Shown: positions 1 through 20,728 of the stretch, piece by piece
How positions within the stretch are numbered: position 1 is the stretch's first letter
How the letters are laid out: every line of letters starts with the position of its first letter
Origin: an uncultured delta proteobacterium
Lineage (GTDB): Bacteria; Myxococcota_A; UBA9160; SZUA-336
Assembly (NCBI GenBank): GCA_963704165.1
Contig: CAVPHD010000003.1
Location: forward strand, 256,001 to 320,000
DNA length: 64,000 nt
Reading direction: 5' to 3'
Program-made: the position numbers and the translations under genes
The notes under the pieces: generated by a model
Database searches by the model: none
Seen by the model: the letters and a program-made list of their open reading frames with translations, nothing else
Told to the model about the DNA's origin: nothing

Positions 1-747
1 GCGATACAGATACTCGTCGTACGGGAGATCCATGCTCTCGGCCTCGCTGCCGACGCGCGTCGACTGCGCCGGCGCGAACTCCACGACCGTCCACTTCCGG
101 AGCGCACCGGCGAGCCAGAGCCGTGTCGACGCCGTCTGCAAGAACCACTGACCGAACTTCCCGACGCCCAGGCGCGAGGCGCCGCGCGGACGGTAGACGC
201 CGTAGCGGCTGAGCATGCCGACGTCGTTGTGAGCCTCCATCAGGACGGCGATGTCGGGATGGTCCTCGACGACGTGGTTGAGCAGGGTGTTCAGCGCATC
301 GTGCGAGGTGACACCGGACTTCCCCGCGTTGATGACGTTCACGCGCAGTCCCTGCGCTTCGAGGAGCGTGGAGACCTGGGCCGGGAAGCGCAGATCCTCC
401 CGAACCGCCGGGTTCTCCGTCGTCGAGCCGCCGAGGAACGCGATGGTCGCGTCGGCGGCTTCGAAACGCCGGCCCGGCAGGATGTACCCGCGCTCGTCGG
501 TGCGCAGCGTCGATACCGGATCGTTCGGATCGATGGCGCTGCGGTCGAATCGAAGATTGCGGAACGGCGGCTGCGTCTCGATCTCGACGAACCAATCGGT
601 CTGCTCGTTCGCGAACGGGTTCTCCCAGAGAACGCGAAGCGCGAACTCGCAGATCAGCAGCGAGAAGACGAGGGTGATCCCGACCACGATGGCCGCGAGG
701 GCCATGCGACTCGTCGGCTTCTCCTCGCCGGGACCGTCCTCAGGCAT
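1..747 (-). CDS. SGNH/GDSL hydrolase-family membrane-anchored protein (3' end outside the window)
   Basis: Not in the ORF track. My translation from ATG 747: MPEDGPGEEKPTSRMALAAIVVGITLVFSLLICEFALR (TM anchor), then IAFLGGSTT (block I), VINAGKSG (block II), MEAHND (block III). Frame stays open to position 1. Confidence 0.8.
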   Translation of the reverse strand, partial: MPEDGPGEEKPTSRMALAAIVVGITLVFSLLICEFALRVLWENPFANEQTDWFVEIETQPPFRNLRFDRSAIDPNDPVSTLRTDERGYILPGRRFEAADATIAFLGGSTTENPAVREDLRFPAQVSTLLEAQGLRVNVINAGKSGVTSHDALNTLLNHVVEDHPDIAVLMEAHNDVGMLSRYGVYRPRGASRLGVGKFGQWFLQTASTRLWLAGALRKWTVVEFAPAQSTRVGSEAESMDLPYDEYLYR

Positions 748-779
748 CGTCCGTGCGGCTCCGTCTCGATCGGTGCCGC

Positions 780-944
780 TCAGAATAGCGTGTAGAGCAG
801 CGGCGCGGCCGCCTTCCCGCCGAGGATGACGAGCCCGGTGAGCAGGAGCACCACGACCAGCGGAACGATCCAGTAGATCCGATTCTGGCGCGCGAAATCG
901 ACCAGCTCTCGAGAGAGCTTCACGCTGCCCTTCAGCTTCCCCAT
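780..944 (-). CDS. DUF5989 / SxtK-like small single-pass membrane protein (54 aa)
   Basis: MGKLKGSVKLSRELVDFARQNRIYWIVPLVVVLLLTGLVILGGKAAAPLLYTLF, with GGAGGGAG RBS upstream. The AP(F/L)(I/L)YTLF terminus and position next to a carbamoyltransferase are typical of the family. Confidence 0.85.
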   Translation of the reverse strand: MGKLKGSVKLSRELVDFARQNRIYWIVPLVVVLLLTGLVILGGKAAAPLLYTLF

Positions 945-975
945 CCGTGCTCCCTCCGGACCCATCGGTCCCGCA

Positions 976-2808
976 TCAATCGAGCTTCAAGCCGTCCCGC
1001 CAGTCGGTGGACTCCTGCCAGGCCCGCTGCGCGGTCTTGTCGAGCAGGAACGGGCCGAGCACGAGGTGGTCCATCTCGGTGCGCATGAAGCACCGGTAGG
1101 CGTCCGCCGGCGTGCACACGATCGGTTCGCCGCGGACGTTGAAGCTCGTGTTGATCAGCACCGCGCAGCCGGTTCTCTGCTCGAAAGCCTCGAGCAGCGC
1201 GTGGTAGCGCGGGTTCGTCTCGCGGCTCACGGACTGCACCCTCGCGGAATGATCGACGTGCGTGATCGCCGGGAGATCCGAGCGCGGTCGATTCACCCAG
1301 TCGTGGAGGTCGAGCTCCCGCTCGTCGCCCTGCTTCGGCAGGCACCGCGAGGATTTCACCGGCGCGACGATCAGCATGTAGGGCGAGGGTCGGTCGAGCT
1401 CGAAGTAGTCGGAGACGCGCTCCTCGAGACAGGACGGCGCAAACGGACGAAAGCTCTCGCGGAACTTGATCTTCAGATTCAGCACCGACTGCATCTTCGG
1501 CGAGCGTGGATCACCGATGATCGAACGATTGCCGAGCGCGCGCGGACCGAACTCCATGCGCCCGTGGAAGAGGCCGACCACGCCTTCCTCGGCCACGAGC
1601 CCGGCGATCGTGGGCGCCCACTCGGCGTCGGAGAGCTCGCGATACACGCCGCCGGTCGCGTCGAGGTACTCGCGAATCTGGTCGGCCGAGAATTCGGGGC
1701 CGAGGTACGAACCGTTCATCGAGTCCCTGTGGCCATCCGTCGTGCGAGGGTTGCCGAGCTCGTTGTACCAGACGGTGAGCGCGGCGCCGATCGCCCCACC
1801 CGCATCGCCCGCGGCCGGTTGGATCCAGAGGTCGTCGAAGATGCCGGACCGCAGGATCTCGCCGTTCGCGACGCAGTTGAGCGCCACGCCGCCCGCCATG
1901 CACAAGCGCGGCTTGCCGCTGACCTCGCGCGCGTGGCGCGCCATCCGGAGCACGATCTCCTCCGTCACCTCCTGGATCGACTTCGCGATGTCCATCTCGC
2001 GGCGCGTGATCGGCGACTCGGGCTGGCGCGCCGGGCCCTCGAAGAGATCCGCGAAGCGATCGGACGTCATCTGGAGTCCGTCGAGGTAGCCGAAGTAGTC
2101 CATGTTGAGCCGGAAGGAGCCGTCGGCCTTCAGGTCGAGAAGCTCCCTTCGGATCACGTCGGTGAATCGGCCGTCGCCGTACGGCGCCAGACCCATGAGC
2201 TTGTACTCGCCGGAGTTCACCGTGAAGCCCGTGTAGTAGGTGAAGGCCGAGTAGAGCAGACCGAGCGAGTGGGGGAAATCGAGCTCGCGCACGAGCGCGA
2301 GCTTCGAGCCCTCGCCGACGCCGATCGTCGCCGTCGCCCATTCGCCAACCCCGTCCACCGTCAGGACCGCCGCCTCGGGAAAGGGCGACGGATAGAACGC
2401 GCTCGCCGCGTGTGACTCGTGATGCTCGGGGAAGTAGATCGCTTCCGGCGCGCGGACACCGCACTTCTCGAGTGACTCCTCGATTCGGGGCTCCATCCAG
2501 AGCTTCTCGTCGAGCCAGGTCGGGATTGCGCGCATGTACTGGGTGAGGCCACGCGGAGCGGTCGATAGATACGTCTCGAGGATGCGGTGGAACTTGAGCA
2601 GCGGCTTGTCGTAGAAGGCGACCGCGTCGATCCGGCCATCCTTCACGCCGGCCTCCGCGAGGCAGTAGCGAACGGCATTCATCGGGAAGTCCTGATCGTG
2701 CTTCGTACGCGTGAAGCGCTCCTCCTGTGCGGCGGCGACGATGACGCCGTCCTCCACCAGACACGCCGCGGAGTCGTGGTAGAAGCAGCTGAGTCCGAGG
2801 ATGCGCAT
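976..2808 (-). CDS. O-carbamoyltransferase (NodU/CmcH/TobZ/SxtI family)
   Basis: Starts MRILGLSCFYHDSAACL. Motifs AQEERFTR, EHHESHAASAFY, DGVGE, GEYKLMGLAPYG, GGVALNC, PAAGDAG, EFGPRALGNRSI, FRPFAP, NTSFN. Confidence 0.95.
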   Translation of the reverse strand: MRILGLSCFYHDSAACLVEDGVIVAAAQEERFTRTKHDQDFPMNAVRYCLAEAGVKDGRIDAVAFYDKPLLKFHRILETYLSTAPRGLTQYMRAIPTWLDEKLWMEPRIEESLEKCGVRAPEAIYFPEHHESHAASAFYPSPFPEAAVLTVDGVGEWATATIGVGEGSKLALVRELDFPHSLGLLYSAFTYYTGFTVNSGEYKLMGLAPYGDGRFTDVIRRELLDLKADGSFRLNMDYFGYLDGLQMTSDRFADLFEGPARQPESPITRREMDIAKSIQEVTEEIVLRMARHAREVSGKPRLCMAGGVALNCVANGEILRSGIFDDLWIQPAAGDAGGAIGAALTVWYNELGNPRTTDGHRDSMNGSYLGPEFSADQIREYLDATGGVYRELSDAEWAPTIAGLVAEEGVVGLFHGRMEFGPRALGNRSIIGDPRSPKMQSVLNLKIKFRESFRPFAPSCLEERVSDYFELDRPSPYMLIVAPVKSSRCLPKQGDERELDLHDWVNRPRSDLPAITHVDHSARVQSVSRETNPRYHALLEAFEQRTGCAVLINTSFNVRGEPIVCTPADAYRCFMRTEMDHLVLGPFLLDKTAQRAWQESTDWRDGLKLD

Positions 2809-2810
2809 GC

Positions 2811-3296
2811 TCAGAACTGCCGAGACCGCGAGGCCGACGCCACGATGCCCTGCGTGCGATCCGACCAGTAGGACGATGCGGACGGTTCGTAGAATCGCTT
2901 CATCGAGTCCCGCCGACCGCGTCGGAACGACAATCCGAACGGAACGAAGAAGAGATAGAAGACGAGCGGAAGCGTCAACCAGCTGATCGCTTGTCCGACG
3001 CCGCGCCCGAGCGCGAGCATGCCGCGATCGATGGCGGCGAAGAGGCCGGTCGGCGAGAGCAGTGCGGCGAGCAGGATCAGGCTCGCGACGCCGACGATGA
3101 AGAGCCCGAGCGGGCGCGACACGAAGCCGAGAACCAGGGCGCCGACGCCCAAGCCGATCATCCCCTGCAGCGCACCGCGCAGCCGCAGGCGAGCGGCCTC
3201 GGGCGGAGCCGCGGTCGTCGGTCCGGGCTCGCGCCAGTTCCAGACGATGGCGGCCGCCTCCGGTCGCCCCGGGCGGGGCTCTCGTTGCTCGCGCAT
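2811..3296 (-). CDS. SxtJ-like membrane protein
   Basis: Hydrophobic segments followed by LVFYLFFVPFGL..RRDSM...SSYW...RQF. Ends 2 nt before the carbamoyltransferase start. The start could instead be 3344. Confidence 0.75.
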   Translation of the reverse strand: MREQREPRPGRPEAAAIVWNWREPGPTTAAPPEAARLRLRGALQGMIGLGVGALVLGFVSRPLGLFIVGVASLILLAALLSPTGLFAAIDRGMLALGRGVGQAISWLTLPLVFYLFFVPFGLSFRRGRRDSMKRFYEPSASSYWSDRTQGIVASASRSRQF

Positions 3297-3383: not shown

Positions 3384-4391
3384 TCAGACTCCGAAGTACT
3401 CCCGATACCACGCCACGAAGTTGCGCACGCCCGTCTCCACGCTCGTGGCCGGCCGATAGCCCACGTCGGCCACGAGATCGCTGACGTCGGCCTCCGTGTC
3501 GGGAACGTCACCCGGCTGCAGCGGCAGCATCACCATCTTCGCCTTCCGGCCCAGACACTCCTCGAGAACCTCGATGTAGCGGAGCAGCTGAACGGGTTCT
3601 TGATTCCCGATGTTGTAGATGCGGTACGGCGCCGGACTCGTCGCGGGATCGGGCGAGGTCCCCTGCCAGCGTGGATTGGGCGCAGCAACGCGATCGAGCG
3701 TGCGGATCACGCCCTCGACGACGTCGTCGACGTAGGTGAAGTCGCGCTTGTGGTGTCCGTGGTTGAAGACCTGGATCGGCTCTCCGGCGAGGATCGCCTT
3801 CGTGAACAGGAAGAGCGCCATGTCGGGGCGCCCCCAGGGACCGTACACCGTGAAGAAGCGCAGTCCCGTGCAGGCGAAGCGGAAGAGGTGCGCATAGCTG
3901 TGCGCCATCATCTCGTTGGCTTTCTTCGTCGCCGCGTAGAGGGTGAGCGGGTGCTCCGTGCCGTTGTGCACCGAGAACGGCATGTTCGTGTTCGCACCGT
4001 AGACCGAGCTCGTCGACGCGAAGACGAGGTGCTCGACGTCGTGATGGCGGCAGCCCTCGAGTACGTGCAGAAAGCCGGTCACGTTGCTCGACACGTAGAT
4101 GTGCGGGTTCTCCATCGCGTAGCGGACACCCGCCTGGGCGGCGAGGCTGACGACGCGCCGGGGCGCATGCTCGGCGAAGACCTTCTCGATCGCACCACGG
4201 TCGGCGAGATCGGCGTGCACGTGTCGATAGCGGGGATGGTCGAGGTGCCGCGCGAGGCGCGCCTTCTTCAGCTTCACGTCGTAGTAGTCGTTGAGGTTGT
4301 CGATCCCGACGACCTCGTCGCCGCGCTCGAGCAGGCGCAGCGTCACCGCCGAGCCGACGAATCCGGCGCTGCCGGTCACGAGGATCTTCAC
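3384..4391 (-). CDS. NAD-dependent UDP-hexuronate 4-epimerase (UDP-glucuronate 4-epimerase/CapI-like)
   Basis: [45 protein letters not shown]. Confidence 0.93.
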
Positions 4392-4401
4392 GCCGCGGAC
4401 C

Positions 4402-5679
4402 TCAGAGCCTTCCGTCCACCGCGTCGCGCGGAAGAACCGACTTCACGTCGTACAGGATCGAGATCGGGCGACCGAGGGCGCGGACGCCGGCGGCGCCGAG
4501 CTCCGCGAACTGACGGTGCGCGACCGCGAGGATCACGGCGTCGTAGGCACCCGGCTCGGGCGCGGACACGGTGGAGATGCCGTACTCGTGCTGCGCCTCC
4601 GCCGGGTCGATCCAGGGATCGTGCACGTCGACCTGCACGTGGTACTGGCGAAGCTCGTCGACGATGTCGACCACGCGGGTGTTGCGAACGTCGGGGCAAT
4701 TCTCCTTGAAGGCGAGTCCGAGGATCAGCACGCGCGCACCGACCAGGCTGATGCCGCGCTTCGCCATCAACCGGACGACCTGATCGGCGACGTAGGCCCC
4801 CATTCCGTCGTTGATGCGGCGGCCCGCGAGGATCACCTCGGGGTGGTAGCCGATCTCCTGCGCTTTGTGCGTCAGGTAGTAGGGATCGACGCCGATGCAG
4901 TGACCACCGACGAGGCCGGGTCGAAACGGCAGGAAGTTCCACTTCGTCCCCGCGGCTTCGAGGACGTCGAGGGTGTCGATCCCGAGGCGATTGAAGATCA
5001 ACGCGAGCTCGTTGATCAGTGCGATGTTCAGGTCGCGCTGCGTGTTCTCGATCACCTTCGCGGCCTCGGCGACCTTGATCGAGCTCGCCTTGTGCGTGCC
5101 CGCCGTGATGATCGATCCGTACAGGCGATCGACGAAGTCCGCGGTCTCGGGCGTGGAGCCCGACGTGACCTTCTTGATCGTCGAGATGCGGTGCTGCTTG
5201 TCACCCGGGTTGATGCGCTCGGGGCTGTAGCCGCAGAAGAAATCCACGTTGAACTTCAGGCCCGACACGCGCTCCAGGATCGGGACGCAGACCTCTTCGG
5301 TGGCACCGGGGTAGACGGTCGATTCGTAGACCACGACGTTTCCCGGGGAGAGACACCGTCCGACGGTCTCGCTCGCGCGAACGAGCGGCGTCAGGTCGGG
5401 CCGCTTCGCGGAGTCGACCGGGGTCGGCACCGTCACGATGAAGACCTCGCACGCTGCGAGATCGCCGGCCTCGTCGCTGAAGCGCAGCATTCGAGCCGAC
5501 TCGAGCTCGGATGGAGACACTTCGAGCGTGTGGTCTCGCATTTCGCGGAGCTCCGAGATGCGCGCCCGGTCGATGTCGAACCCGATCGTGGCGAAGTGCT
5601 TTCCGAACTCCGCCGCGAGCGGCAACCCGACGTATCCGAGGCCGATCACGGCCAGCTTCGTCTCTTCGAGCCGCTTCAC
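4402..5679 (-). CDS. UDP-N-acetylhexosamine 6-dehydrogenase (TviB/WbpO-like)
   Basis: GTG 5679 overlaps the upstream stop. Motifs [49 protein letters not shown]. 425 aa. Confidence 0.93.
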
Positions 5680-7214
5680 AATCCCAGATCCCACGCGTAC
5701 CGGAATCCGAGGCCGATCGTGATCCTGTCCTGATCGTCGGTCTCGAGATCCACTCCGCTCCCGAGAAGTTGATCGGTCGTCGAGTGATAGTAGCGTCCGA
5801 TCAGATACGCATTCAGCTGTCGGCGAAGCTGCCAGTCGAGCCGGGCCGTCAGCGTCGTGTAGGTGCGATCCTCCTGCGCCGAGCCGCCGAAGCACTGATA
5901 GATCGGAACGTCGACGCCGGCAAACTGTGGATGAGGCACCGTGCCGACGATGCTCGCCGTGCCGCCGTAGTAGCAGCTGGTGCTCTCCGTCGTCGGCGAG
6001 GTGGGGAAGACGCTCGCGGCATAGCTCGGGATCTCGTCGGTGACCGAGCCGTACAGCTGGTAGCTCCCGGAGACCGTCAGCATGACGCGCTCGGCGAGCC
6101 GGTGCGTCAGCGAGAGCGTGAACGCGTCGATGTCGAAGTTCGTCCGGCCGGTGCCGCCGGTCGAGCGCGTGTCCCGGTCGTAGGAGAGCCGGACCAGGCT
6201 GCGCTCGAAGGCGCGCTGGATCGCGATCGAACCGATCAGCCCCGTCCCGCTCCCGGAGAAACTCCGCTCGTCGAGCGCGACGCGCTCCTGCTGCGGACAG
6301 TCGAACGGGATTCCGAAAATGGTGCAGACGGCCATGAACCCGATTCCACCGCTCTGCGGCGCGTCGTTCTGGGTCGAGTCGATCGTTCGCGCGCCGATCG
6401 AGAGCGACGTGGACCAGACCGGCGACCAGTTTCGGTTCCAGCTCAACCTTGCCGCCCAGATCTCGGAATCGTTCGACCCCGTTCCCAGGTCCTGGTACGA
6501 GGTGCTGTCGCCATCGACTCCCAAGCTGACGTCGTCACGCGCCGTGAGCTGGTACGTGAGCACCGCCCGAGCGTCCCAGAGGCTGCGATCGCGGTACTCG
6601 CCGTTCGAGCTGTCGATCGCGTTCTGGGAATCGCCGACGCTCGTACCGACGCGTTCGAAGTTCAGGCGCCCCATGCCGCCCTCGATCCGCAGCGCCGTGC
6701 GCGGCGTGAGCAGGTACTGGAACCCGCCTCCGATGTCGTCCCGGGCCCATGCAGGCAGCTCCTCGAGCAGGATATCGCCCAGCGAACCGGGAGGCTCGTC
6801 GCTCCCGGTGTCGTCGCGGATCTCGTCGTAGCCGGAGGAGTAGTCCACCTGTCCGTTTCCGAAGAAGGTCAGACGCGGGGTCAGCTTGCGTTCGAAGTTC
6901 CCGCGTGCGCCGGTGTCGATGCCGGAGAGCGTCGACTCGTTCCAGACACTCCGCCCGACCGCGGTCACTCCCAGGCGCGCAAAACCGAGCTCTCCTTTGT
7001 TCTCGATCCAGAGCCCCGGCCTGAAGGTCGTGACCGGGCTTTCCTTCTCGTTGGTCGAGTAGTTGTAGACGTTCGAGTCCCAGCCCTGCTCCAGGTCGAA
7101 CATCGGGCGCAGGACGGTCTTGTCCGCGGCGCGCACCGCTCCGGGTGCACACACAACTGCGACGAGCGCGAGAGCGAGTCTAGCGCCAGAAAGCGCGTTC
7201 TTCGGGTACGACAA
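5676..7214 (-). CDS. Outer-membrane beta-barrel protein of the polysaccharide export locus (EpsX/WzpB-like)
   Basis: TTG at 7214 preceded by GGAG with a 6-nt spacer. Signal peptide ends AVRA. WDSNVY motif, alternating beta-strands, C-terminal [11 protein letters not shown]. Start codon inferred. Confidence 0.7.
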
Positions 7215-7818
7215 TCGTGTCTCCAGGGAGCAGGAGTATGTTCTGCGAGAGGTCCTTGCCGTCGATGAAGTGGTCGTAGTCGAAGTTGAACTCGGCGGCG
7301 CCACCGCCCTGGTTGCGGATCACCTTGACCCGGGCCCGGCCGGCGAAGGGGTTGAACCCACCGGCGAGCGCGATCGCGTCGAGCACGCGCATGTCGGGCT
7401 GCATCTGGATCGGACCCTCGCGCGAGACCTCGCCGATGATGTAGACGAGCTTCGATCCGACGCTCGCGACGACGACGGTCACGACGGGAGCGGTGAGGAA
7501 CTCCGTCAGTCGCTCGGTGATGTCCGCCTTGAGCTCGAGTGGAGTGCGCCCGGCCGCCTGCACGTCGTCGATCAACGGGACGGAGATCTTTCCGTCGAGC
7601 CGGACCTCGACTCTCGCGAGCGAGAGCTCCGGCTCGCGCCAGACGACGATCGCGAGCGTGTCCCTCGGCCCGATCACGTAGGACTCCGTCACCTCGACCG
7701 CTTGCGTCTCGAGCTGCGCCGCGCTCGGCAGCTCGCGCGCCGTGCCCGCGCAGGCCGCGAGCGCGAGCGCGACGAGCGACGCGACGATGGGTCTTCCGGG
7801 GGTGCGATTCGCGATCAT
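7180..7818 (-). CDS. Short OPX (Wza-like) polysaccharide export lipoprotein
   Basis: Lipobox LAAC, YVIGPRDTL, VRLDGKISVPLI (PES motif), one SLBB domain, ends [10 protein letters not shown]. Confidence 0.9.
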   Translation of the reverse strand: MIANRTPGRPIVASLVALALAACAGTARELPSAAQLETQAVEVTESYVIGPRDTLAIVVWREPELSLARVEVRLDGKISVPLIDDVQAAGRTPLELKADITERLTEFLTAPVVTVVVASVGSKLVYIIGEVSREGPIQMQPDMRVLDAIALAGGFNPFAGRARVKVIRNQGGGAAEFNFDYDHFIDGKDLSQNILLLPGDTIVVPEERAFWR

Positions 7819-7840
7819 CGATGTCGTCCTTCGGTTCGGG

Positions 7841-9274
7841 CTACGGCGCGTTCGCCAGGCCCGCGTCCTTCATCTTGTAGAGGAGGGCCTTGTAGCTGAT
7901 CTGCAGGATCTCCGCGGCCTCCTTGCGGTTCCAGCGGGTCCGCTCGAGCACCTTCGCGATCAATCTCGCCTCGGCGACCTGAGCGGCGTCGCGGCCGACC
8001 TGCTTCAGGCTGACGCGATCCGTCTCGCCGGCGAGAAAGCGCTCGAGGTCGGTGGCCGACGCGTCGGGAGCGGGAGCGGGCAGTGGGGTGCGGATCGCGC
8101 GCGCGCGAAGCTCGGCGATCACAGGCTTCACCGAATCGAGCACGACCACGCGCTTCACCACGTTCTCGAGCTCGCGGATGTTCCCCGGCCAGTCGTAGCC
8201 CAGGAGGGTTTCGCGAAGCTCGGCGGGCACCGCCTTCGGGTCCTTTCCGTACTCGCGCGCATAGCGCTCGAAGAAGAGGTCGGTGAGGAACGGGATCTCC
8301 TCTCGTCGCTCTCGGAGCGGAGGGAGTGCGATGGTCACGACGTTCAGTCGGAAGAAGAGATCCGCACGAAACGTGCTGTCGCGAACCGCGGTCTCGAGGT
8401 TCCGATTCGAGGCCGCGATCACGCGCGCATCGACGGAGATGTCGGTCTCACCACCGAGCCGGGAGAAGTGCCCGTCCTGGAGTACCTGCAGGAGCTTCGC
8501 CTGCAGGTTCGGGTGCACTTCGCTGATCTCGTCGAGGAAGATCGTTCCGCCGTCCGAGAGCTCGAACTTGCCGAGCCTGCGTTTCTCGGCGCCCGTGAAC
8601 GCGCCGCGTTCGTAGCCGAAGAGCTCGCTCTCGAGCAGCTCGGAGGGAAGCGCTGCGCAATTCACCTTGACGAACGCGCGCCGCGAACGAGTCGAGCGCG
8701 CGTGGAGCGTTCGCGCGACGAGTTCCTTGCCGGTTCCGCTCTCGCCGCGAATCAGGACGGTGATGTCGGTGTCGGCGACCTGGTCGATCATCTCCTCGAC
8801 GAGACGCATCTTGGGACTCCGGCCGGCGAAGATGATGCCCGACGTACCGGCACACGCCGCGGTGTAGCTCCGCTCGCGCAGCGACTCGGTTCGATCCGGC
8901 GCTTCGTGCGGTCGCAGGGCCTTCGCGAACGCGGCCTCGAGCTCCTTTGCTTCGATCGGCTTGCACAGAAAGTCGTTCGCTCCGTGTTTCACCGCGAGCG
9001 CGATCGCGCGCGTATCGGCGATTCCCGAAAGCATGATCACCGGCACGCTCGCCGAGAGCTCTCGCAGTTTGCGAAGCGTCGCCAGGCCATCCATTCCCGG
9101 CATCGACAGGTCGAGCGTCACGAGATCGGGCGCGCGGAGGCGAAAGATCTCCAGGGCTTCCTCGCCCGATCTCGCGCACTCGACGGTGTGACCCTGCTCG
9201 ATCGCAAAGCTGGAGAGCCAGGCGCACATGCCCGGGTCGTCGTCGATGATCAGTAGCTTCGGGTGCGATTTCAT
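7841..9274 (-). CDS. Sigma54-dependent response regulator (REC-AAA+-Fis HTH), paralog 2
   Basis: IIDDD, LDLSMP, GESGTGKE, GAFTGA, FLDEI, WPGNIREL and a C-terminal HTH. Confidence 0.95.
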   Translation of the reverse strand: MKSHPKLLIIDDDPGMCAWLSSFAIEQGHTVECARSGEEALEIFRLRAPDLVTLDLSMPGMDGLATLRKLRELSASVPVIMLSGIADTRAIALAVKHGANDFLCKPIEAKELEAAFAKALRPHEAPDRTESLRERSYTAACAGTSGIIFAGRSPKMRLVEEMIDQVADTDITVLIRGESGTGKELVARTLHARSTRSRRAFVKVNCAALPSELLESELFGYERGAFTGAEKRRLGKFELSDGGTIFLDEISEVHPNLQAKLLQVLQDGHFSRLGGETDISVDARVIAASNRNLETAVRDSTFRADLFFRLNVVTIALPPLRERREEIPFLTDLFFERYAREYGKDPKAVPAELRETLLGYDWPGNIRELENVVKRVVVLDSVKPVIAELRARAIRTPLPAPAPDASATDLERFLAGETDRVSLKQVGRDAAQVAEARLIAKVLERTRWNRKEAAEILQISYKALLYKMKDAGLANAP

Positions 9275-9319
9275 AGGGGGGATCGGGCTTCGGCTTCGTC
9301 GCCGGCAGCCGACGAGCGT

Positions 9320-9337
9320 TGCGACAAGCGTGCCAAG
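9320..9337 (-). promoter_or_regulatory. Sigma54 (-24/-12) promoter upstream of activator 2 and the export/modification genes
   Basis: Minus strand reads CTTGGCACGCTTGTCGCA, with GG and GC at consensus spacing (TGGCACG-N4-TTGCA), about 45 nt before the start at 9274. Confidence 0.8.
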
Positions 9338-9504
9338 TCTGCGAACGTGACCGACGGGCGGGGGAACGGCGCTCGCGGCGATCGGCGCCCCTCAGGGTAC
9401 CGGACTTCCGAAAAGGAGTCGCTCGCGACTCTCACGCAACTCGTGCGCAGCTTCGCGCGCTCTTCGATTCGAAGCGGGCCAGCGAGCATGGTAGCTTCGA
9501 CTCG

Positions 9505-9867
9505 ATGTCGCGACGCGTCGAGAAGCCTTGGGGCTACGAGGAGATCTGGGTCGAGACTCCTCGCTATCTCGGCAAGATCCTGGCCATCCGCGCGGGGCAT
9601 CGACTCTCGCTGCAACTCCATCGCGAGAAGGACGAGGCCATCTACGTGCTGCACGGGACGCTTCGGCTCACGCTCGAAAACGACGCCGGGGAGCTCGAGG
9701 TCCGAGAGCTCGGTCCGGGCGCGAGCTCGCGCATCACGCCCGGACGCCGTCATCGTTTCGAAGCCGTCTCCGATTGCGAGCTCTGCGAGGTCTCGACCCC
9801 CGAGCTCGACGACGTGGTCCGGCTTCAGGATGACTACGGCCGCGTGCCCGGCTCGGGCCGGATGTAG
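9505..9867 (+). CDS. Cupin-domain protein (type II mannose-6-phosphate isomerase C-terminal-like)
   Basis: MSRRVEKPWGYEEIW, RLSLQLHREKDE, HRFEA, EVSTPELDDVVRLQDDYGR. Confidence 0.85.
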   Translation: MSRRVEKPWGYEEIWVETPRYLGKILAIRAGHRLSLQLHREKDEAIYVLHGTLRLTLENDAGELEVRELGPGASSRITPGRRHRFEAVSDCELCEVSTPELDDVVRLQDDYGRVPGSGRM

Positions 9868-11288
9868 GCGCGCACCGACGACGATCGAGCCGGGACGATC
9901 GCGGATCGATCTGCGAATCGCCGCCATCGACCGGCCAACATCGGCGCGGCTTCGGGGGCGTCCTCTTCCGCGAAACGCTCGACACAGGCGCGCGCGGCCA
10001 ACGCGTACAGGACCCAGAACTGCGCCGAGATCTGACTCACGTGCAGGATGCCCGAATGCGAGAGGTTGGCGACCAGGTTGTGCGTCGCCGCCGCCAACAA
10101 CACCGCTCCGAGCAGGTACTCCTTCGAGTCGGAGCGCCAGAGCACGCGTCCGCAGCGGTACACTCCCCAGATCAGCCAGGCCAACATGCCCAGACCGATC
10201 AACCCCATCTCGGCTCCGAACTGCACGATCAGATTGTGGGCCTCCTTTCGGTGGTGCATTCCGTACTTCGCTCCGAACTCGGGTGTGCGGAAATGGAAGG
10301 CATTCAGACCGTGGCCCCAGACGGGAGAGGTGGTAAACATGTCGAGGCCGATTCGCGCGAAGGCGAGCCGCGACCCGGTCGAACCATCGACACTGATCGA
10401 CCCGGGTACCAAGTAGACGTTCGCCCCGGTCGTCGTCGTCCACTCGATTCGCTCGCGCACGATCTCCGGCAGGAGTGGCAGGCCCACCGCGACCAGGATC
10501 GCCATCGTCGCGACCGAAACCGCGAGCAGCTTGCGATTGACGAGCAGGAGAAAGACGCCGTGGGCGGCAAAGAACGCGAGCCAGTTCCCTCGCGACAGGC
10601 TGACCACCATCGCCACGGCGGCGAGTCCATAGGTTGCGGCCGCAAAGACGCGCAGACCGCGACCGTGCTCGCGCCCGCGCATGAGGAGGTAGAGCGGTAC
10701 GAACATCATCGGGCCGACCGACTCCGCCAGTCCGTTCGCATTGGCGATGAACCCGCCCGCGCGCTCGCGGCCAACGAGGATGCGCGGGTTGATGTGGAAG
10801 ACGAAATCGAGAACTCCCGCGACACTCGACAGAAAGAGCGCGATGCAGAGCGCGACCAGCACTCGTTGCCGGTCCTCGGGGCTCTGAAGCCACCAGTAGA
10901 CGACGAAGAAGAGCAATATCGTGAAGGTCATGCTCTTCGCTTGCTTGAAAATGAACCAGACGGCGGCGCTGCCATCGACGGCTTGTAGACCCCTGGCCCA
11001 GGGAATCGAAAGGACAAAGGCGATCAGCATGACCACCGCGAACGCGATCACCGGGGCCGAGTAGCGCAGAGGCGGAAGTCGTGCGCCGAAGCGAAGCACC
11101 GTGACCGCGAACGCGACACCGATCAGGATCGTCTCGGTGTTCATGCCCGGAACGGGCAGGCGAGGCGCCCACGGATCCATCGGAAAGATCGCGACCAGTA
11201 GCGCGATGCCCCAGACCGGCCGCCAGAACAGCGTCGCGACGGCGACGAGCACGAGTGCGCTGTACGGGTACTGAAGATGCTCGAGCAT
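9834..11288 (-). CDS. O-antigen ligase / Wzy polymerase family membrane protein
   Basis: Many TM helices; RAGG..NAN, SLSRG, PVWGHG, AHNLIVQ..AEMGLIG. Confidence 0.88.
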   Translation of the reverse strand: MLEHLQYPYSALVLVAVATLFWRPVWGIALLVAIFPMDPWAPRLPVPGMNTETILIGVAFAVTVLRFGARLPPLRYSAPVIAFAVVMLIAFVLSIPWARGLQAVDGSAAVWFIFKQAKSMTFTILLFFVVYWWLQSPEDRQRVLVALCIALFLSSVAGVLDFVFHINPRILVGRERAGGFIANANGLAESVGPMMFVPLYLLMRGREHGRGLRVFAAATYGLAAVAMVVSLSRGNWLAFFAAHGVFLLLVNRKLLAVSVATMAILVAVGLPLLPEIVRERIEWTTTTGANVYLVPGSISVDGSTGSRLAFARIGLDMFTTSPVWGHGLNAFHFRTPEFGAKYGMHHRKEAHNLIVQFGAEMGLIGLGMLAWLIWGVYRCGRVLWRSDSKEYLLGAVLLAAATHNLVANLSHSGILHVSQISAQFWVLYALAARACVERFAEEDAPEAAPMLAGRWRRFADRSAIVPARSSSVRAYIRPEPGTRP

Positions 11289-11295
11289 CGCGTGT

Positions 11296-12471
11296 TCAGC
11301 CGGCCGCGCGCCGGCTGACCTCCTCGTGGTGGTCCGGAGTCGCGACGGCTTCGGCCTGGCTTCGCACCTCGAGCTCCAGGTCGCGCCGCAAGGCCCGGCG
11401 TTCGAGCGCTCGCAGCGCCGCGAAGCCGACGAAGATCAGGGCCAGGAACAACCCCCAGCGCAGAGTCGAGGAAATGCCGCGCGTGCCCAAGCCGACCGCC
11501 GCGCATCCGATGCAGACCGAGTACAGGACCACGAGTGACTCGCCGACCGAGAGCCCGTTGCGAAGCAGGAGGTGGTGAAGGTGTCCTCGGTCCGCGAGCG
11601 TGACCGCGCGAATCATCTCACCCGGCCGCAGACCCTCGGCTCCTCGGGTTCGAAGGTGCAGGAGTCCTCGCCGGAGCACGGCGAGGATGGGATCGAGCAG
11701 CGGCAGTCCGAGCACCAGCAACGGAACGATCAGCGCGACGGCGGCCGGGGACTTCTGGTACGAGGCCATCGCGAGCACCGCGGTCATGTACCCGATCGAG
11801 AGTGCCCCGGCATCGCCGAGAAAGATGCGCGCCGGAGGCAGATTGAAGCGCAGGAACCCGGCCAACGCCCCCGACAGCGCGAGCGCCGCGATCACCGGCA
11901 CCGTCGCACCGTTCTGGTTCGCGAGCAGAAAGACCGTGAGCGCGGTGATCACCGAGACCCCAGCGGCCAATCCGTCGATCCCGTCGATCAGGTTGAAGGC
12001 GTTGGCGACGATCACGATCCAGGCGATCGTCACCACGAACGAGACCGGTGCGGCCGCGGTCAGCAGCAGCTCGAACGGCAGCTCGATCGCTCCGACGCGA
12101 AACCCCAGGGCCCAGGTGAGTGCGGCAATCGCGATCTGGCCCGCGAGCTTGGTCATCGGCCGCATGTCGTACAGGTCGTCCCAGGTGCCGAGCGCGACCA
12201 TCAACAGCGCGCCCAGGCCGAGCGCACCCAGCGACGCGTGGCCGAAGAGCGCGCTGCGAACCGGCTCCACGAAGATCGAGAGCGCGAGGAGTCCGAGCAC
12301 GATCGAGCCGAAGACGGCGACGCCGCCGAGGAGCGCCACCGGTTCCTTGTGCGCCTTGCGTGCCGTCGGGTGGTCGAGATATCCGCGAGCCTGCGCGAAC
12401 CGGATCACCGCAGGCGTCAGCGCCAGCGCCAACAACCACGGAACGATCAGAATCGCTGCAAATACCACCAT
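11296..12471 (-). CDS. Undecaprenyl-phosphate HexNAc-1-phosphate transferase (WecA/MraY, GT4 PNPT family)
   Basis: DHPTARKAH, WDD, NAFNLIDGIDGL, IFLGDAG, ADRGHLHH. Confidence 0.92.
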   Translation of the reverse strand: MVVFAAILIVPWLLALALTPAVIRFAQARGYLDHPTARKAHKEPVALLGGVAVFGSIVLGLLALSIFVEPVRSALFGHASLGALGLGALLMVALGTWDDLYDMRPMTKLAGQIAIAALTWALGFRVGAIELPFELLLTAAAPVSFVVTIAWIVIVANAFNLIDGIDGLAAGVSVITALTVFLLANQNGATVPVIAALALSGALAGFLRFNLPPARIFLGDAGALSIGYMTAVLAMASYQKSPAAVALIVPLLVLGLPLLDPILAVLRRGLLHLRTRGAEGLRPGEMIRAVTLADRGHLHHLLLRNGLSVGESLVVLYSVCIGCAAVGLGTRGISSTLRWGLFLALIFVGFAALRALERRALRRDLELEVRSQAEAVATPDHHEEVSRRAAG

Positions 12472-12504
12472 CGTGCCATCGCCTTCGGCTGCGGGCCCCG
12501 TCGA

Positions 12505-13368
12505 TCAGCTCTTGCCGTAGCCATAAGCGCCGGCGAACGGAACCTCGCTGCTGCTGCAGCGGCTCAGAACGACGCCCATCATCTTGCTCGCATCGAGTCG
12601 CTCGAGCGCCGACTCGACCTCGTCGCGCGGCGCGATTCCCGCGCCGACGACGAAGAGCGCCGCGTCGCAGAGATCCACCAGGGTGACCGTGTCGGGCAGC
12701 CCGAGGACCGGCGGCGCGTCGAAGATCACCGTGGGAAAGCGGGTGTGGAGCTCCGCGACCAGATCGAGCATCGCGCGGGACGCGAGCAGCTCGGAAGGTG
12801 CGGTCGGCAACGCACGGACCGGCAGGATCATGAGCCGCGTGTCGGGTACCGAGATCAAGGCCTCGTCGAGCTTTGCGTCGCCCTCGAGCACCTCCGCGAG
12901 GCCATAGGGTCCGGCCCCCCGGAAGATGTCGTGTACACGCGGCGTACGCAGATCTGCGTCGACCAGGCAGGTGAGTCCCTCGCGCTCCAATCCGAAGCCG
13001 AGCGCGAGATTGGCCGCGGTCGTCGTCTTGCCTTCGCCGGGACGCGTCGACGTGATCACGATGCTGCGCAGCTCACGCGTGCGGCGCAGTGACTGAATGC
13101 GCGCACGCAGCGTGCGGTACTCCTCGGACAAGGTCGCCTCGCCGAGCGCGATCGGCGTCTCGGGCCGAGTCGGCTCCGGCCGCTTCGCCTTGCGACGCGG
13201 AAACCAGCGCCGGGGCTTCGCGGGCGCGCGGGGCACGTCGACCTCGATCGGCGCGCTCCGGACCTCGATCTCCGGCTCGGCGTCGATCTCGGTTTCGATC
13301 TCGACCGAGGGAGGTGCGCCGCGGCGCATCTCCTCGGCCTTCCGGAGCGCATCGTGAATCTTGCCCAT
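12505..13368 (-). CDS. CpsD/CapB-family bacterial tyrosine kinase (stand-alone)
   Basis: EEYRTLR, Walker A GEGKTT, LVDADLRTP, IFDAPP, C-terminal AYGYG. Confidence 0.92.
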   Translation of the reverse strand: MGKIHDALRKAEEMRRGAPPSVEIETEIDAEPEIEVRSAPIEVDVPRAPAKPRRWFPRRKAKRPEPTRPETPIALGEATLSEEYRTLRARIQSLRRTRELRSIVITSTRPGEGKTTTAANLALGFGLEREGLTCLVDADLRTPRVHDIFRGAGPYGLAEVLEGDAKLDEALISVPDTRLMILPVRALPTAPSELLASRAMLDLVAELHTRFPTVIFDAPPVLGLPDTVTLVDLCDAALFVVGAGIAPRDEVESALERLDASKMMGVVLSRCSSSEVPFAGAYGYGKS

Positions 13369-13386
13369 GAAAGATCCTCCCTGGAC

Positions 13387-14313
13387 CTAGAGCTCGGCTG
13401 CGGGTTCGAACCCACGCCGACGCAGCAGCCGTCGCAGAAAACCGGGTTTGCTCTCGCGCGCGCTGCCGTCGCGACCTCGCGCTTGTGGAATCTCCAGGGC
13501 GCCCTCGACGAGCTCGAGATCTCGCGCCGCAGCCTCGACCATCTCTGCGGAAACGCGCTTCGACTGGCGCGAGAACGCGACGATCAGTGCGTTGTCGCAG
13601 AGCACGTTGATCACGCGCGGAATCCCGTGCGAGAAGCGATACACCGCGCGCTCCGCGGCCGCGGTGAAGACGTCGCCGCGCGGATGGCCCGCCACCGTCT
13701 GGCGCTCGCGGATGTAGGCTGCGGTCTCCTGCATGTGCAGGGGGCGGATCGAGTGGCGCAGCTCGACGCGCTGCCGCAGCTGGCGGAGCTGCGGTTGGGC
13801 GAGTTTCTCTGCCAGCTCCGGCTGACCGACGAGCATGATCTGGAGCAGCTTCGACTGCGGCGTCTCGAGGTTCGAGAGCATGCGGATCTCTTCGAGCAGC
13901 GCCTCGGAGAGATTCTGCGCCTCGTCGACGATCAAGAGCGTCTTCAAGCCCTGCTCGAGTCGATCGATCAGATGGCGGTTCAAGCGCGAGAGCGCGGCGC
14001 TCTTTCGGAAGGGCTCGACGGGCTCGATCTCGAGCTCGTCGAGCAGCGTCACGAACAGGTCCTCGACCTCGAGCGAAGTGTTGAAGATGAACGCGGTCTG
14101 CACGTTCGACTCGAGCCGCTCGAGGAGCGCATTCAGGATCGTCGTCTTGCCCGTCCCGACCTCGCCGGTGAGGGTGATGAAGCCCTTCCGCTCCTGCACC
14201 GCGTAGACGAGCGTCGCCAGCGCCTCCGCGTGCCCCTCCGACATGAAGAGGAAGCGCGGATCCGGGTTCACGCGGAACGGATCCGAGGCGAATTCGAAGA
14301 AGGCGTTATACAC
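13387..14313 (-). CDS. ExeA/GspA-like AAA ATPase associated with the EPS locus
   Basis: MYNAFFEFASDPF..NPDPRFLF, GEVGTGKT, IVDEAQNL, GQPEL, GIPRVINVLCDNAL. Confidence 0.92.
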   Translation of the reverse strand: MYNAFFEFASDPFRVNPDPRFLFMSEGHAEALATLVYAVQERKGFITLTGEVGTGKTTILNALLERLESNVQTAFIFNTSLEVEDLFVTLLDELEIEPVEPFRKSAALSRLNRHLIDRLEQGLKTLLIVDEAQNLSEALLEEIRMLSNLETPQSKLLQIMLVGQPELAEKLAQPQLRQLRQRVELRHSIRPLHMQETAAYIRERQTVAGHPRGDVFTAAAERAVYRFSHGIPRVINVLCDNALIVAFSRQSKRVSAEMVEAAARDLELVEGALEIPQARGRDGSARESKPGFLRRLLRRRGFEPAAEL

Positions 14314-15781
14314 GCGCGGCTCCGAAGCGAAGCAGGCGGAAGCGTCCCGCCGGCCGTGCCGCCATCGCCACCTCGGGCACCGCCGCGAGCACGGGAAGAC
14401 CGAGCGAGTTCTGCAGGTCCACCACGCTGTGGAAGCTCCGGTCGCTCATCTCGCGGAGCACGAGCAGTCCGAGTCCGAACATCATGCCGAGCAGCGTTCC
14501 CGCCGTGAACCAGACCGGGCGGTTCGGGCTGATCGGCGCGGTCGGGATCTCGGCCGACTCCACCACCCGGAATCGCTCGCCCTTGTTGTTGGTCTCGATC
14601 GTCTTGCCGATCTCGGCATCGACCTGCTTGAGCTGCAGCGTGCGAATCGACTCGTTGATGTTCTTGTACTGCTGCTCGAGGTGGTCGAGCTCGGCGGCGC
14701 GCCGCGGCGTGTTCTCGATGCGCTGCTCGTACTCGGCGATGTCGGCCTTGAGCCGCTCCACCTCGCCCGCGAGCACCTTCGCGGAGACCTCGTAGTCGCG
14801 CAGCTTGTCGCGCATGGCGAGCTCTTCCTTGGAGGCCGGCGCCGCCTGGTCCTGGTTCTCGGCGATCAGATCGTCGAGCTGCACGATCTCGGCGCGCACG
14901 TGGATGATGTCCGGGTGCTTCTCGGTCTTGCCCTGCGCCAGCTGCCGGTTCAGCTCGATGATGAGCGTGCGCTTGCGCAGGCCCGGGTCGCTCTGATCGG
15001 AGGTGGTGGCGAGGCGCATCTCGGTGAGCGACTCGGTCAGAAGTCGATGCTGATCGCGCGCCTCCTCGAGCTTGGCCTCGGTTCCGGCCAGATCGAAGCG
15101 GTTGCGCTCCAAGCGGTCGCGATTCAGGAGCAGCTGCTCGGGCAGCTCGCCCTGGAAGTTCTCCTTGTAGTCCGTGATCTGGCGGGCGACGTCGGCGAGG
15201 CTCGCGCGCGCCTTCTGGAGCTGCTGGTCGAAGAACTCCATGGTGCCGTCGGCCAGGCTCGTGCGATCACGGAGGTTGGCCGAGATGAAGTCGCGCGCGA
15301 GTCGGTTGGAGACCTCGGCGGCGATCTTCGGATTCGAGAAGCGGAACGCGACCCGGAACGAGTTCAGCTCGATCGGCTTGCGCGGATCGACGATCGCCGG
15401 CGGAAGGGGCGCGATCGAAATCCGCTGGCGCATCTCCTCGACCTGGACCTCGCGCGCGGTGGTCTCGCCCGCGAAGAGGTTGAAGTCGGTGATGATGCTC
15501 GAGAGGCTGTCTCGTGCGAGCAGCTGAAGCTTCAGGTTCTCGTACCGCGTCTCGGTGTCCGACGCGATCGTGTTCGGCGCGAGCTTGTCCGGAATGACGG
15601 GAGGCTCGACGGTGACCGTCGCGACCGCCTCGTATTCCGCGGGCAGCGTCAGCGCCAGCACCAGCGAGGCCACCACCCCGATCGCCATCGGGACGATGAA
15701 CCACCACCGCCGGCGGCGAAGTACCCCATAGATGTCGCCGAGACTCAACCCGGCTTCGTTGCGCGTGTCCCTGGCGGCCAT
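14306..15781 (-). CDS. Polysaccharide co-polymerase / chain-length determinant (Wzc/GumC-like, no kinase domain)
   Basis: N-terminal TM after RRRWW, long coiled coil, HPD motif, AEIPTAPISPNR plus TM, LGLPVLAAVP. Confidence 0.92.
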   Translation of the reverse strand: MAARDTRNEAGLSLGDIYGVLRRRRWWFIVPMAIGVVASLVLALTLPAEYEAVATVTVEPPVIPDKLAPNTIASDTETRYENLKLQLLARDSLSSIITDFNLFAGETTAREVQVEEMRQRISIAPLPPAIVDPRKPIELNSFRVAFRFSNPKIAAEVSNRLARDFISANLRDRTSLADGTMEFFDQQLQKARASLADVARQITDYKENFQGELPEQLLLNRDRLERNRFDLAGTEAKLEEARDQHRLLTESLTEMRLATTSDQSDPGLRKRTLIIELNRQLAQGKTEKHPDIIHVRAEIVQLDDLIAENQDQAAPASKEELAMRDKLRDYEVSAKVLAGEVERLKADIAEYEQRIENTPRRAAELDHLEQQYKNINESIRTLQLKQVDAEIGKTIETNNKGERFRVVESAEIPTAPISPNRPVWFTAGTLLGMMFGLGLLVLREMSDRSFHSVVDLQNSLGLPVLAAVPEVAMAARPAGRFRLLRFGAARV

Positions 15782-15881
15782 TCTTACGTCCTCTCTCTCC
15801 CAAGCGCGGATCGCGCTCTCGTGGGTCGAGACAAACGGCAGCCCCTGGTCTCGATCCCAGGGACGCCCGGGTCGGGCATCA

Positions 15882-15899
15882 TGCCACAAGCGTGCCAAG
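15882..15899 (-). promoter_or_regulatory. Sigma54 (-24/-12) promoter upstream of the co-polymerase operon
   Basis: Minus strand reads CTTGGCACGCTTGTGGCA, 17/18 identical to the site at 9320-9337. Lies in the intergenic gap. Confidence 0.8.

Positions 15900-16000: not shown

Positions 16001-20728
<4,728 letters not shown>

Follow-up and report, generated by a model that had tools for sequence, protein, structure and literature searches.

The first 3,296 nucleotides of a 64,000-nucleotide stretch of DNA from an uncultured delta proteobacterium (contig CAVPHD010000003.1, positions 256,001 to 320,000; hereafter the window) carry a cassette of four minus-strand genes, spaced by 2-32 bases, that encode in this order an SxtJ-like membrane protein, a class III carbamoyltransferase (CT), a peptide of the DUF5989/SxtK family and an anchored SGNH protein. 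Judging from sequence comparisons, we consider it fairly probable that the four proteins form a relay, in which a carbamoyl group would pass from the CT to a tyrosine in the tail of SxtK, then to the serine of the SGNH protein and finally to an envelope glycan; that a tyrosine relay of some kind operates here appears likely. The route from CT through tyrosine to SGNH serine is supported by the conserved tail, by the co-variation of CT and SGNH and by soluble and fused forms of the cassette. The acceptor is probably the product of the adjoining polysaccharide operon. An original prediction, made from the letters of the window only, had proposed such a relay; its interpretation is partly supported, and the soluble and fused versions add support beyond it.

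Components of the cassette

The features of the cassette are as follows.

2811..3296, minus strand: SxtJ-like membrane protein, 161 aa (iterated profile, paralogue, Atlas)
976..2808, minus strand: class III (TobZ/GdmN/NodU-type) carbamoyltransferase, 610 aa, no transmembrane (TM) segment (PF02543 and PF16861, fold)
2491..2619, minus strand: amphipathic two-helix lid of the CT, residues 64-106 (alignment over the GdmN acceptor-binding helix)
780..944, minus strand: DUF5989/SxtK peptide, 54 aa (PF19451)
792..794, minus strand: codon of Tyr51, the invariant tail tyrosine and proposed carbamoyl carrier (tail alignment)
1..747, minus strand, continuing 348 bases past the window edge: N-anchored SGNH protein, 364 aa in full (PF13472; Ser108 codon 424-426; D329 and H332 outside the window)

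The CT matches GdmN, NovN and TobZ by sequence and by fold (TM-score about 0.8 against GdmN/TobZ), and its Kae1-like and YrdC-like domains, with the general-base histidine and the metal ligands, place it in class III. His11 aligns with His27 of GdmN, the general base of that enzyme (PMC9633730), and a histidine is present in 68 of 69 aligned CTs; His129, His133, Asp152 and Asp335 are conserved as well. The fold, the two-domain layout, the catalytic histidine and the metal ligands are shared with TobZ, GdmN, NovN and NodU, but these enzymes act alone on small molecules, whereas in a quick tree of 49 CTs the tail-associated enzymes form a clade of their own (support 97) with a conserved amphipathic lid. 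This lid, two amphipathic helices that the alignment positions over the acceptor-binding helix of GdmN, is conserved beside the membrane peptide but diverges where the genome yielded no match to the peptide; three loci with the lid and no adjacent peptide have the peptide elsewhere in the genome. At two other loci (L054 and L058) a pair of extra, distant carbamoyltransferases stands in tandem ahead of a CT-J-K-SGNH cassette.

The 161-aa membrane protein gave no Pfam match at E<=0.1, and its designation as SxtJ-like rests on indirect homology: it scored E 1.6e-30 with a profile iterated on the neighbours of related CTs, its paralogue on contig C10 of the same genome passes PF19588 (SxtJ), and in the Atlas clusters nearest to it SxtJ is found on 13-22% of members. 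It is built of two TM helices, an amphipathic stretch, a third hydrophobic segment and a basic C-terminal tail with SYW and RQF, and its N- and C-termini are both basic. At locus L024, in the one J-SGNH fusion, the C-terminus of J is joined ahead of the N-in anchor of the SGNH protein, which together with the basic termini suggests that the third segment is re-entrant and could admit the SxtK tail. AlphaFold draws this segment as one long helix. A fold search with the model was uninformative, returning generic helical hairpins only (Z up to 7.2). No longer SxtJ fusion was found among 7,996 scored candidates, which is weak evidence, and two J-K read-through open reading frames (ORFs) among 150 matches may be frameshifts and were not used.

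An invariant tyrosine in the tail of SxtK

The window peptide is a member of DUF5989 (PF19451, 48.6 bits against a cut-off of 27, E 8.4e-13), a family labelled SxtK in UniRef, and GGAGG stands upstream of its start at 944. It consists of an amphipathic basic N-terminus, one TM helix and a 12-residue tail ending APLLYTLF. Of 80 loci surrounding relatives of the CT in a wide range of phyla, 69 have J and 67 have the peptide; CT-J-K is a strict core that often stands alone. Tyrosine at position -4 and phenylalanine at -1 are present in all 67 peptide ORFs found by neighbourhood (one frameshifted locus excluded, one locus contributing two). Over three locus sets the tyrosine occupies -4 in 140 of 141 unique peptides, the sole exception being a frameshifted copy, and the F..F pattern occurs in 114 of the 141 unique tails; further cyanobacterial tails end FIYTLF or FIYTIF without exception (30/30). 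The family comprises 6,351 clusters at 50% identity, and among the best 150 of them 140 end in Y..F, the other 10 holding the motif before an extension. Charge bias, read by the positive-inside rule, predicts an N-in/C-out topology in 59/59 peptides with a tail of about 12 residues, which would put the tail, behind a single TM helix, on the outer face; a re-entrant tail would be compatible as well. Both the invariant tyrosine and the N-in/C-out topology had been anticipated by the original prediction.

The presence of the peptide follows that of the enzyme. A CT above 700 bits was found in 32/32 peptide-positive and 2/89 peptide-negative cyanobacterial genomes (n=121), and 38 of 41 relatives of the host have the peptide, the remaining three being without CT as well.

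Several further copies of the peptide were observed. A direct homolog search with the window peptide returned only four proteins. An orphan SxtK paralogue (G000:C12:156462-156620, locus L006, and loci L199-L208) is conserved in the genus among housekeeping genes; it ends NF(V/T)YTLx, with a constant F-x-Y and a variable last residue. The window's SGNH family also has an orphan member, at C4:357 kb. The orphan peptide and the orphan SGNH co-occur in 8 of 12 genomes of the genus and are both missing in 2, a set of few and related genomes that was not used as support. At L034, L209, L212 and L216 a peptide copy stands beside SGNH genes and apart from any CT; at L034 this copy, with three SGNHs and an MBOAT, is divergent from a full J-K-CT set. 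DUF5989/SxtK is also carried by the genome-reduced symbiont Candidatus Atelocyanobacterium thalassa (UCYN-A) and by Aphanothece sacrum.

The SGNH partner

The complete SGNH protein matches PF13472 at E 1e-14 with the motifs FLGGST, GKSG, AHND and YDGVH. The DxxH, which had been expected beyond the window edge, is present there (D329, H332), and S108, D329 and H332 are invariant in 119 aligned relatives (119 of the 120 listed). An anchor was detected in 113 of 120 relatives, with an N-in bias in 64 of 83 scored, and of 57 SGNHs encoded beside the membrane peptide, 55 are anchored. Some cassettes have several SGNHs.

In a reverse search with the window's SGNH family, CT, J or K was found in 23 of 80 loci (17 of the first 30 listed), two of the 23 being distant CTs without J or K. 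Anchored-type SGNHs at E<1e-30 are present in 24/32 peptide-positive and 0/89 peptide-negative cyanobacterial genomes, in-trans cases included, with at most 18 candidates scored per genome and related genomes that are not independent; it tells against this count as support for a relay that the cut-off was picked after seeing the data and that the profile, built in part on cyanobacterial cassette SGNHs, is partly circular. In one of the genomes (G053) peptide, CT and SGNH lie megabases apart. An MBOAT stands near only 3/80 CT loci and 0/80 loci of the window's SGNH family, in line with the absence of MBOAT that had been expected. L078 (CT-J-K-GDSL-MATE) and two other cyanobacterial cassettes were considered as saxitoxin clusters and ruled out by their neighbours; the GDSL protein of L078 has no anchor-type N-terminus and was left out of the counts.

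A soluble and fused version of the cassette

The starting point was provided by two peptide-negative cyanobacteria with a strong CT. The first has a 1061-aa chain (on 2 contigs) that joins an anchorless SGNH, a CT and a domain ending IYVMF; in the second, an anchorless SGNH is accompanied by a short soluble ORF with the end NIYPLF. A similar soluble tail follows the CT in three peptide-negative loci of the first set and in three more. The prediction for the soluble form was fixed beforehand and tested on all 14 new loci that two anchorless SGNH queries yielded in 602 genomes. A CT is adjacent, with neither J nor K, in 14/14, and all 13 loci that could be scored, having DNA past the CT, encode a homologous soluble carrier with tyrosine at -4. 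Seven of these 13 carriers fit the preset, Phe-ending pattern, and six end in Tyr or His and were missed by the strict pattern, for which the background was 2/2,110 and 3/156 ORFs. The commonest ends, PFVYVMY and SFVYEMF, parallel PFIYTLF. Two of the new loci are further triple fusions, so that single SGNH-CT-tail chains total three; in one new locus an MBOAT is also present, paired with an anchored SGNH of its own. At 18 of 18 distant NodU-type CT loci, SGNH, peptide and carrier were all absent.

Compared with the membrane loci, the soluble ones are devoid of J, of the peptide and of the SGNH anchor, and their CT lid is divergent. The four soluble-tail CTs that were tested nest as one clade within the tail-type group (93), sister to the window's subclade (99), and therefore probably a single event removed J, both anchors and the lid together, while CT, tyrosine tail and SGNH were kept. 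The front half of the carrier weakly resembles the cytoplasmic SYW segment of J (probability 18, E 0.0013). Pairwise similarity between the first carriers was mostly not significant, and homology emerged with a larger profile; single-sequence searches with the carrier gave only two new loci, and no match was found in viral contigs, plasmids, Pfam or the Atlas. At L272:2078-5926 an anchorless SGNH is fused to an apparent adenylation-carrier-thioesterase module, beside a CT and a 56-aa soluble Tyr-tailed peptide, and this fusion suggests a small-molecule acceptor.

Relation to known systems

The published acyl-shuttle motif is a C-terminal FXYXXF (PMC12148441). The original prediction had likened the peptide to DltX, and the likeness holds for the position of the tyrosine and for the FXYXXF of the family, not for the first position of the window copy, where Leu replaces Phe. 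With DltB-DltX-DltD the cassette shares a one-TM microprotein, a C-terminal FXYXXF with Tyr at -4 and an N-anchored SGNH (PMC12148441, PMC13653941). It differs in having neither MBOAT nor carrier-protein thioester: carbamoyl would be the cargo, and the donor is an ATP-dependent, soluble carbamoyltransferase accompanied by a small SxtJ protein. The cassette also has a soluble, cytoplasmic version. In PatA-PatB and other MBOAT-SGNH O-acetyltransferases a peripheral helix and a TM helix precede the same hexapeptide, but there the motif is the MBOAT's own C-terminus, whereas in the cassette it stands on the separate SxtK; for PatA-PatB, acetyl-tyrosine has been demonstrated as donor to the SGNH (PMC12148441). 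A profile comparison of SxtK with five MBOAT C-termini gave no significant match (probability 0.14) that would point to shared ancestry. In its mode of action the cassette would resemble a DltX-type tyrosine shuttle, but without an MBOAT it does not belong to the MBOAT-SGNH family.

A precedent for a carbamoyltransferase that modifies the C-terminus of a protein is HypF-HypE, in which the carbamoyl group of carbamoyl-AMP goes to a residue at the end of the partner protein (PMC9633730). That system differs in its class II enzyme and Cys acceptor and has neither SGNH nor membrane component. The carbamoyl group is there dehydrated to a cyanide ligand.

The closest precedent for the gene set is sxtI-sxtJ-sxtK-sxtL, which encodes a carbamoyltransferase, J, K (165 bp) and a GDSL/SGNH protein. 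In this cluster sxtL follows sxtIJK, SxtL is proposed as a decarbamoylase, and J and K stand without assigned function (PMC2679770); the four-gene set itself is therefore already in print. The original prediction was right about sxtIJK and its unassigned J and K and missed the GDSL/SGNH gene sxtL behind them. Unlike the sxt cluster, the window locus lies within a polysaccharide operon; among the neighbours of the window cassette, to which this search was confined, there are polysaccharide genes, and no other sxt gene and no saxitoxin core gene was noted. The open-access papers on sxtJ, sxtK and the carbamoyltransferase all deal with saxitoxin, and no paper on DUF5989 was found in the open-access literature. 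The relay, too, was not found in the open-access literature searched, the supplements of the Dlt and Pat papers lying outside its scope, which agrees with the claim of the original prediction that no description existed. What is new here is the soluble version of the cassette with a Tyr-tailed carrier, including the single SGNH-CT-tail chain.

Proposed mechanism

Carbamoyltransferases of this family form carbamoyl-AMP and then transfer the carbamoyl group to a hydroxyl (PMC9633730). In the first step, which is established for the family, the CT would thus make carbamoyl-AMP in the cytoplasm from carbamoyl phosphate and ATP. Its amphipathic lid, together with the cytoplasmic tail of SxtJ, might hold it on the inner face of the membrane. 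In the next and weakest step, the 12-residue hydrophobic tail of SxtK would enter the acceptor pocket of the CT through a groove between SxtJ and SxtK and become an aryl carbamate. By analogy with DltX-DltD and PatA-PatB, the tail would then swing out to the Ser-His-Asp site of the SGNH protein, which would take the carbamoyl group on Ser108 and deliver it to the envelope glycan. CT-J-K may represent a constant donor module, and diverse SGNHs, often several per cassette or encoded elsewhere in the genome, would choose the acceptor. The derived, all-cytoplasmic form would run on the same three components, having dispensed with J, the anchors and the lid. Aryl carbamates are known to carbamoylate serine hydrolases, and the physostigmine enzyme PsmE is said to carbamoylate an aryl hydroxyl.

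A number of observations weigh against this relay. The carbamoyl-tyrosine and carbamoyl-serine intermediates, the complex and the product are predicted only. The CT works in the cytoplasm and the predicted position of the tail is outside, and membrane crossing is left unexplained by SxtJ, which at 161 aa has neither an MBOAT funnel nor an invariant catalytic residue. An unsubstituted aryl carbamate is a labile group, and turnover of carbamoyl-serine is slow. The tail of the window's own peptide departs from FXYXXF at its first position. SGNH genes do co-occur with the other three, as the original prediction required, and 31 of 53 well-flanked J+K loci have an SGNH at a distance of up to 8 kb, but it is not obligatory, being adjacent (<=450 bases, same strand) in only 27/64 J+K loci and nearby in 2/20 class-wide CT-J-K copies of the host's relatives, which often stand among unrelated, non-polysaccharide genes. 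No common substitute for SGNH was found among 91 neighbours of 24 SGNH-less loci, and 8 of 32 peptide-positive cyanobacterial genomes miss the SGNH cut-off. Conversely, CT, J and K are all missing from 57/80 loci of the window's SGNH family (41 of these 80 loci are shorter than 6 kb), many SGNH relatives are orphans, and L121 and L151 pair a distant CT directly upstream of an anchored SGNH of this family with no tail found. One soluble-carrier locus shows no SGNH within 1.5 kb, and the soluble cases tested, being one clade, probably have a single origin.

Alternative explanations

The alternative that survives best, though we regard it as unlikely, is that SxtJ and SxtK serve to tether the CT to the inner face of the membrane, with the tail as a non-covalent docking or activating element, so that the CT directly carbamoylates a cytoplasm-facing acceptor such as a lipid-linked repeat unit, a core sugar or a metabolite. 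Such an arrangement poses no membrane-crossing problem and agrees with the frequent solitary CT-J-K core, with known family members that act directly on their acceptors (PMC9633730) and with the saxitoxin literature, in which SxtI works with J and K and L is not invoked for transfer. It leaves unexplained, however, why the tyrosine tail and SGNH stayed with the CT after loss of the membrane parts, why all three occur in single chains, why SGNH anchoring tracks that of the tail and why the tyrosine is never replaced by Phe among 140 tails.

It is also quite unlikely, in our view, that the relay is real and serves another cargo or acceptor here, namely N-methylcarbamoyl made by a linked methyltransferase, or a glycoprotein glycan, lipid or small molecule in place of an exopolysaccharide. 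A methyltransferase gene is convergent with that of the window SGNH, and such enzymes are fused to the CT in nine loci and adjacent to it in others; the operon resembles XrtA/PEP-CTERM types below cut-off, one soluble SGNH carries the adenylation-carrier-thioesterase-like module, and many cassettes lie outside polysaccharide loci. Against this, the window cassette is co-oriented with a Wzy-type operon and ends it, and most cassettes are without the methyltransferase, whose role is putative.

The third alternative, that the tail is carbamoylated or the CT acts directly and the SGNH is a hydrolase that removes or edits the carbamoyl group, in keeping with the role proposed for SxtL and with that of Ape1 or DltE in acyl systems, is improbable: it can draw on the proposal for SxtL and the loss of sxtL together with sxtI in L. 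wollei (PMC2679770, PMC3037375), on the solved structures related to the SGNH by sequence, which are esterases, and on cassettes whose several SGNHs could include an editor, but the joint loss fits a transferase equally, the SxtL assignment is bioinformatic in the source passages, and a hydrolase in one chain with CT and tail would create a futile cycle.

Genomic setting

As had been proposed from the sequence, the four co-oriented genes end an exopolysaccharide operon. The operon and the fifth linked gene are located as follows.

3384..15898, minus strand: Wzy-type polysaccharide operon, upstream of and co-oriented with the cassette, candidate source of the acceptor
L001:17432-18682, plus strand: Zn-ribbon-like and SAM methyltransferase gene, convergent with the window SGNH, outside the window

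The operon encodes an epimerase, a nucleotide-sugar dehydrogenase, Wza, a Wzy_C ligase/polymerase, a GT4-family MraY-like initiator, a Wzc-like ATPase and an XrtA-type chain-length protein. The methyltransferase, whose gene lies just outside the window, is fused to the C-terminus of the CT in related loci and absent from most cassettes; it is possible that it N-methylates the carbamoyl group, the cargo of this subtype then being N-methylcarbamoyl. Two sigma-54-type response regulators and a histidine kinase-like gene, as read from the sequence, lie within and before the operon (window 7841-9274 and 16001-18583), and an NAD-dependent DNA ligase-like gene (window 18684-20516) is apparently broken by frameshifts, for which sequencing errors are possible.

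The same genome holds another CT-J-K cassette, with a peptide whose C-terminus is an exact FXYXXF, one orphan peptide, 11 anchored-type SGNH genes and two unlinked MBOATs, which are on other contigs and each end in an FXYXXF of their own. In this second cassette (G000:C10:73003-78556, L005), genes that read from the sequence as WecB/TagA-like, deacetylase-like and anchored SGNH lie downstream of CT-J-K. CT-J-K of this C10 type is near-universal among the 41 relatives of the host.

Significance

A broader formulation, which we put forward tentatively as somewhat doubtful in its entirety, is that the cassette represents a third class of tyrosine shuttle after MBOAT-SGNH and AT3-SGNH. A soluble, ATP-dependent CT would carbamoylate the tyrosine of a microprotein across the inner membrane by way of a small SxtJ conduit, and in many phyla surface polymers would receive carbamoyl or N-methylcarbamoyl from interchangeable SGNHs. 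A cytoplasmic form, at its extreme a single SGNH-CT-tail chain, would be derived from it, SxtJ, SxtK and SxtL would each gain a function, and SxtL would be a transferase and not a decarbamoylase.

The soluble single-chain versions make the central claim testable on one purified protein, without membrane reconstitution. If the relay is real, it would provide a route by which carbamoyl groups made in the cytoplasm reach the cell surface without an MBOAT or AT3 protein. It would give a function to DUF5989/SxtK and to SxtJ and reopen the roles of sxtJ, sxtK and sxtL, and it would predict a widespread, overlooked modification of the bacterial surface.

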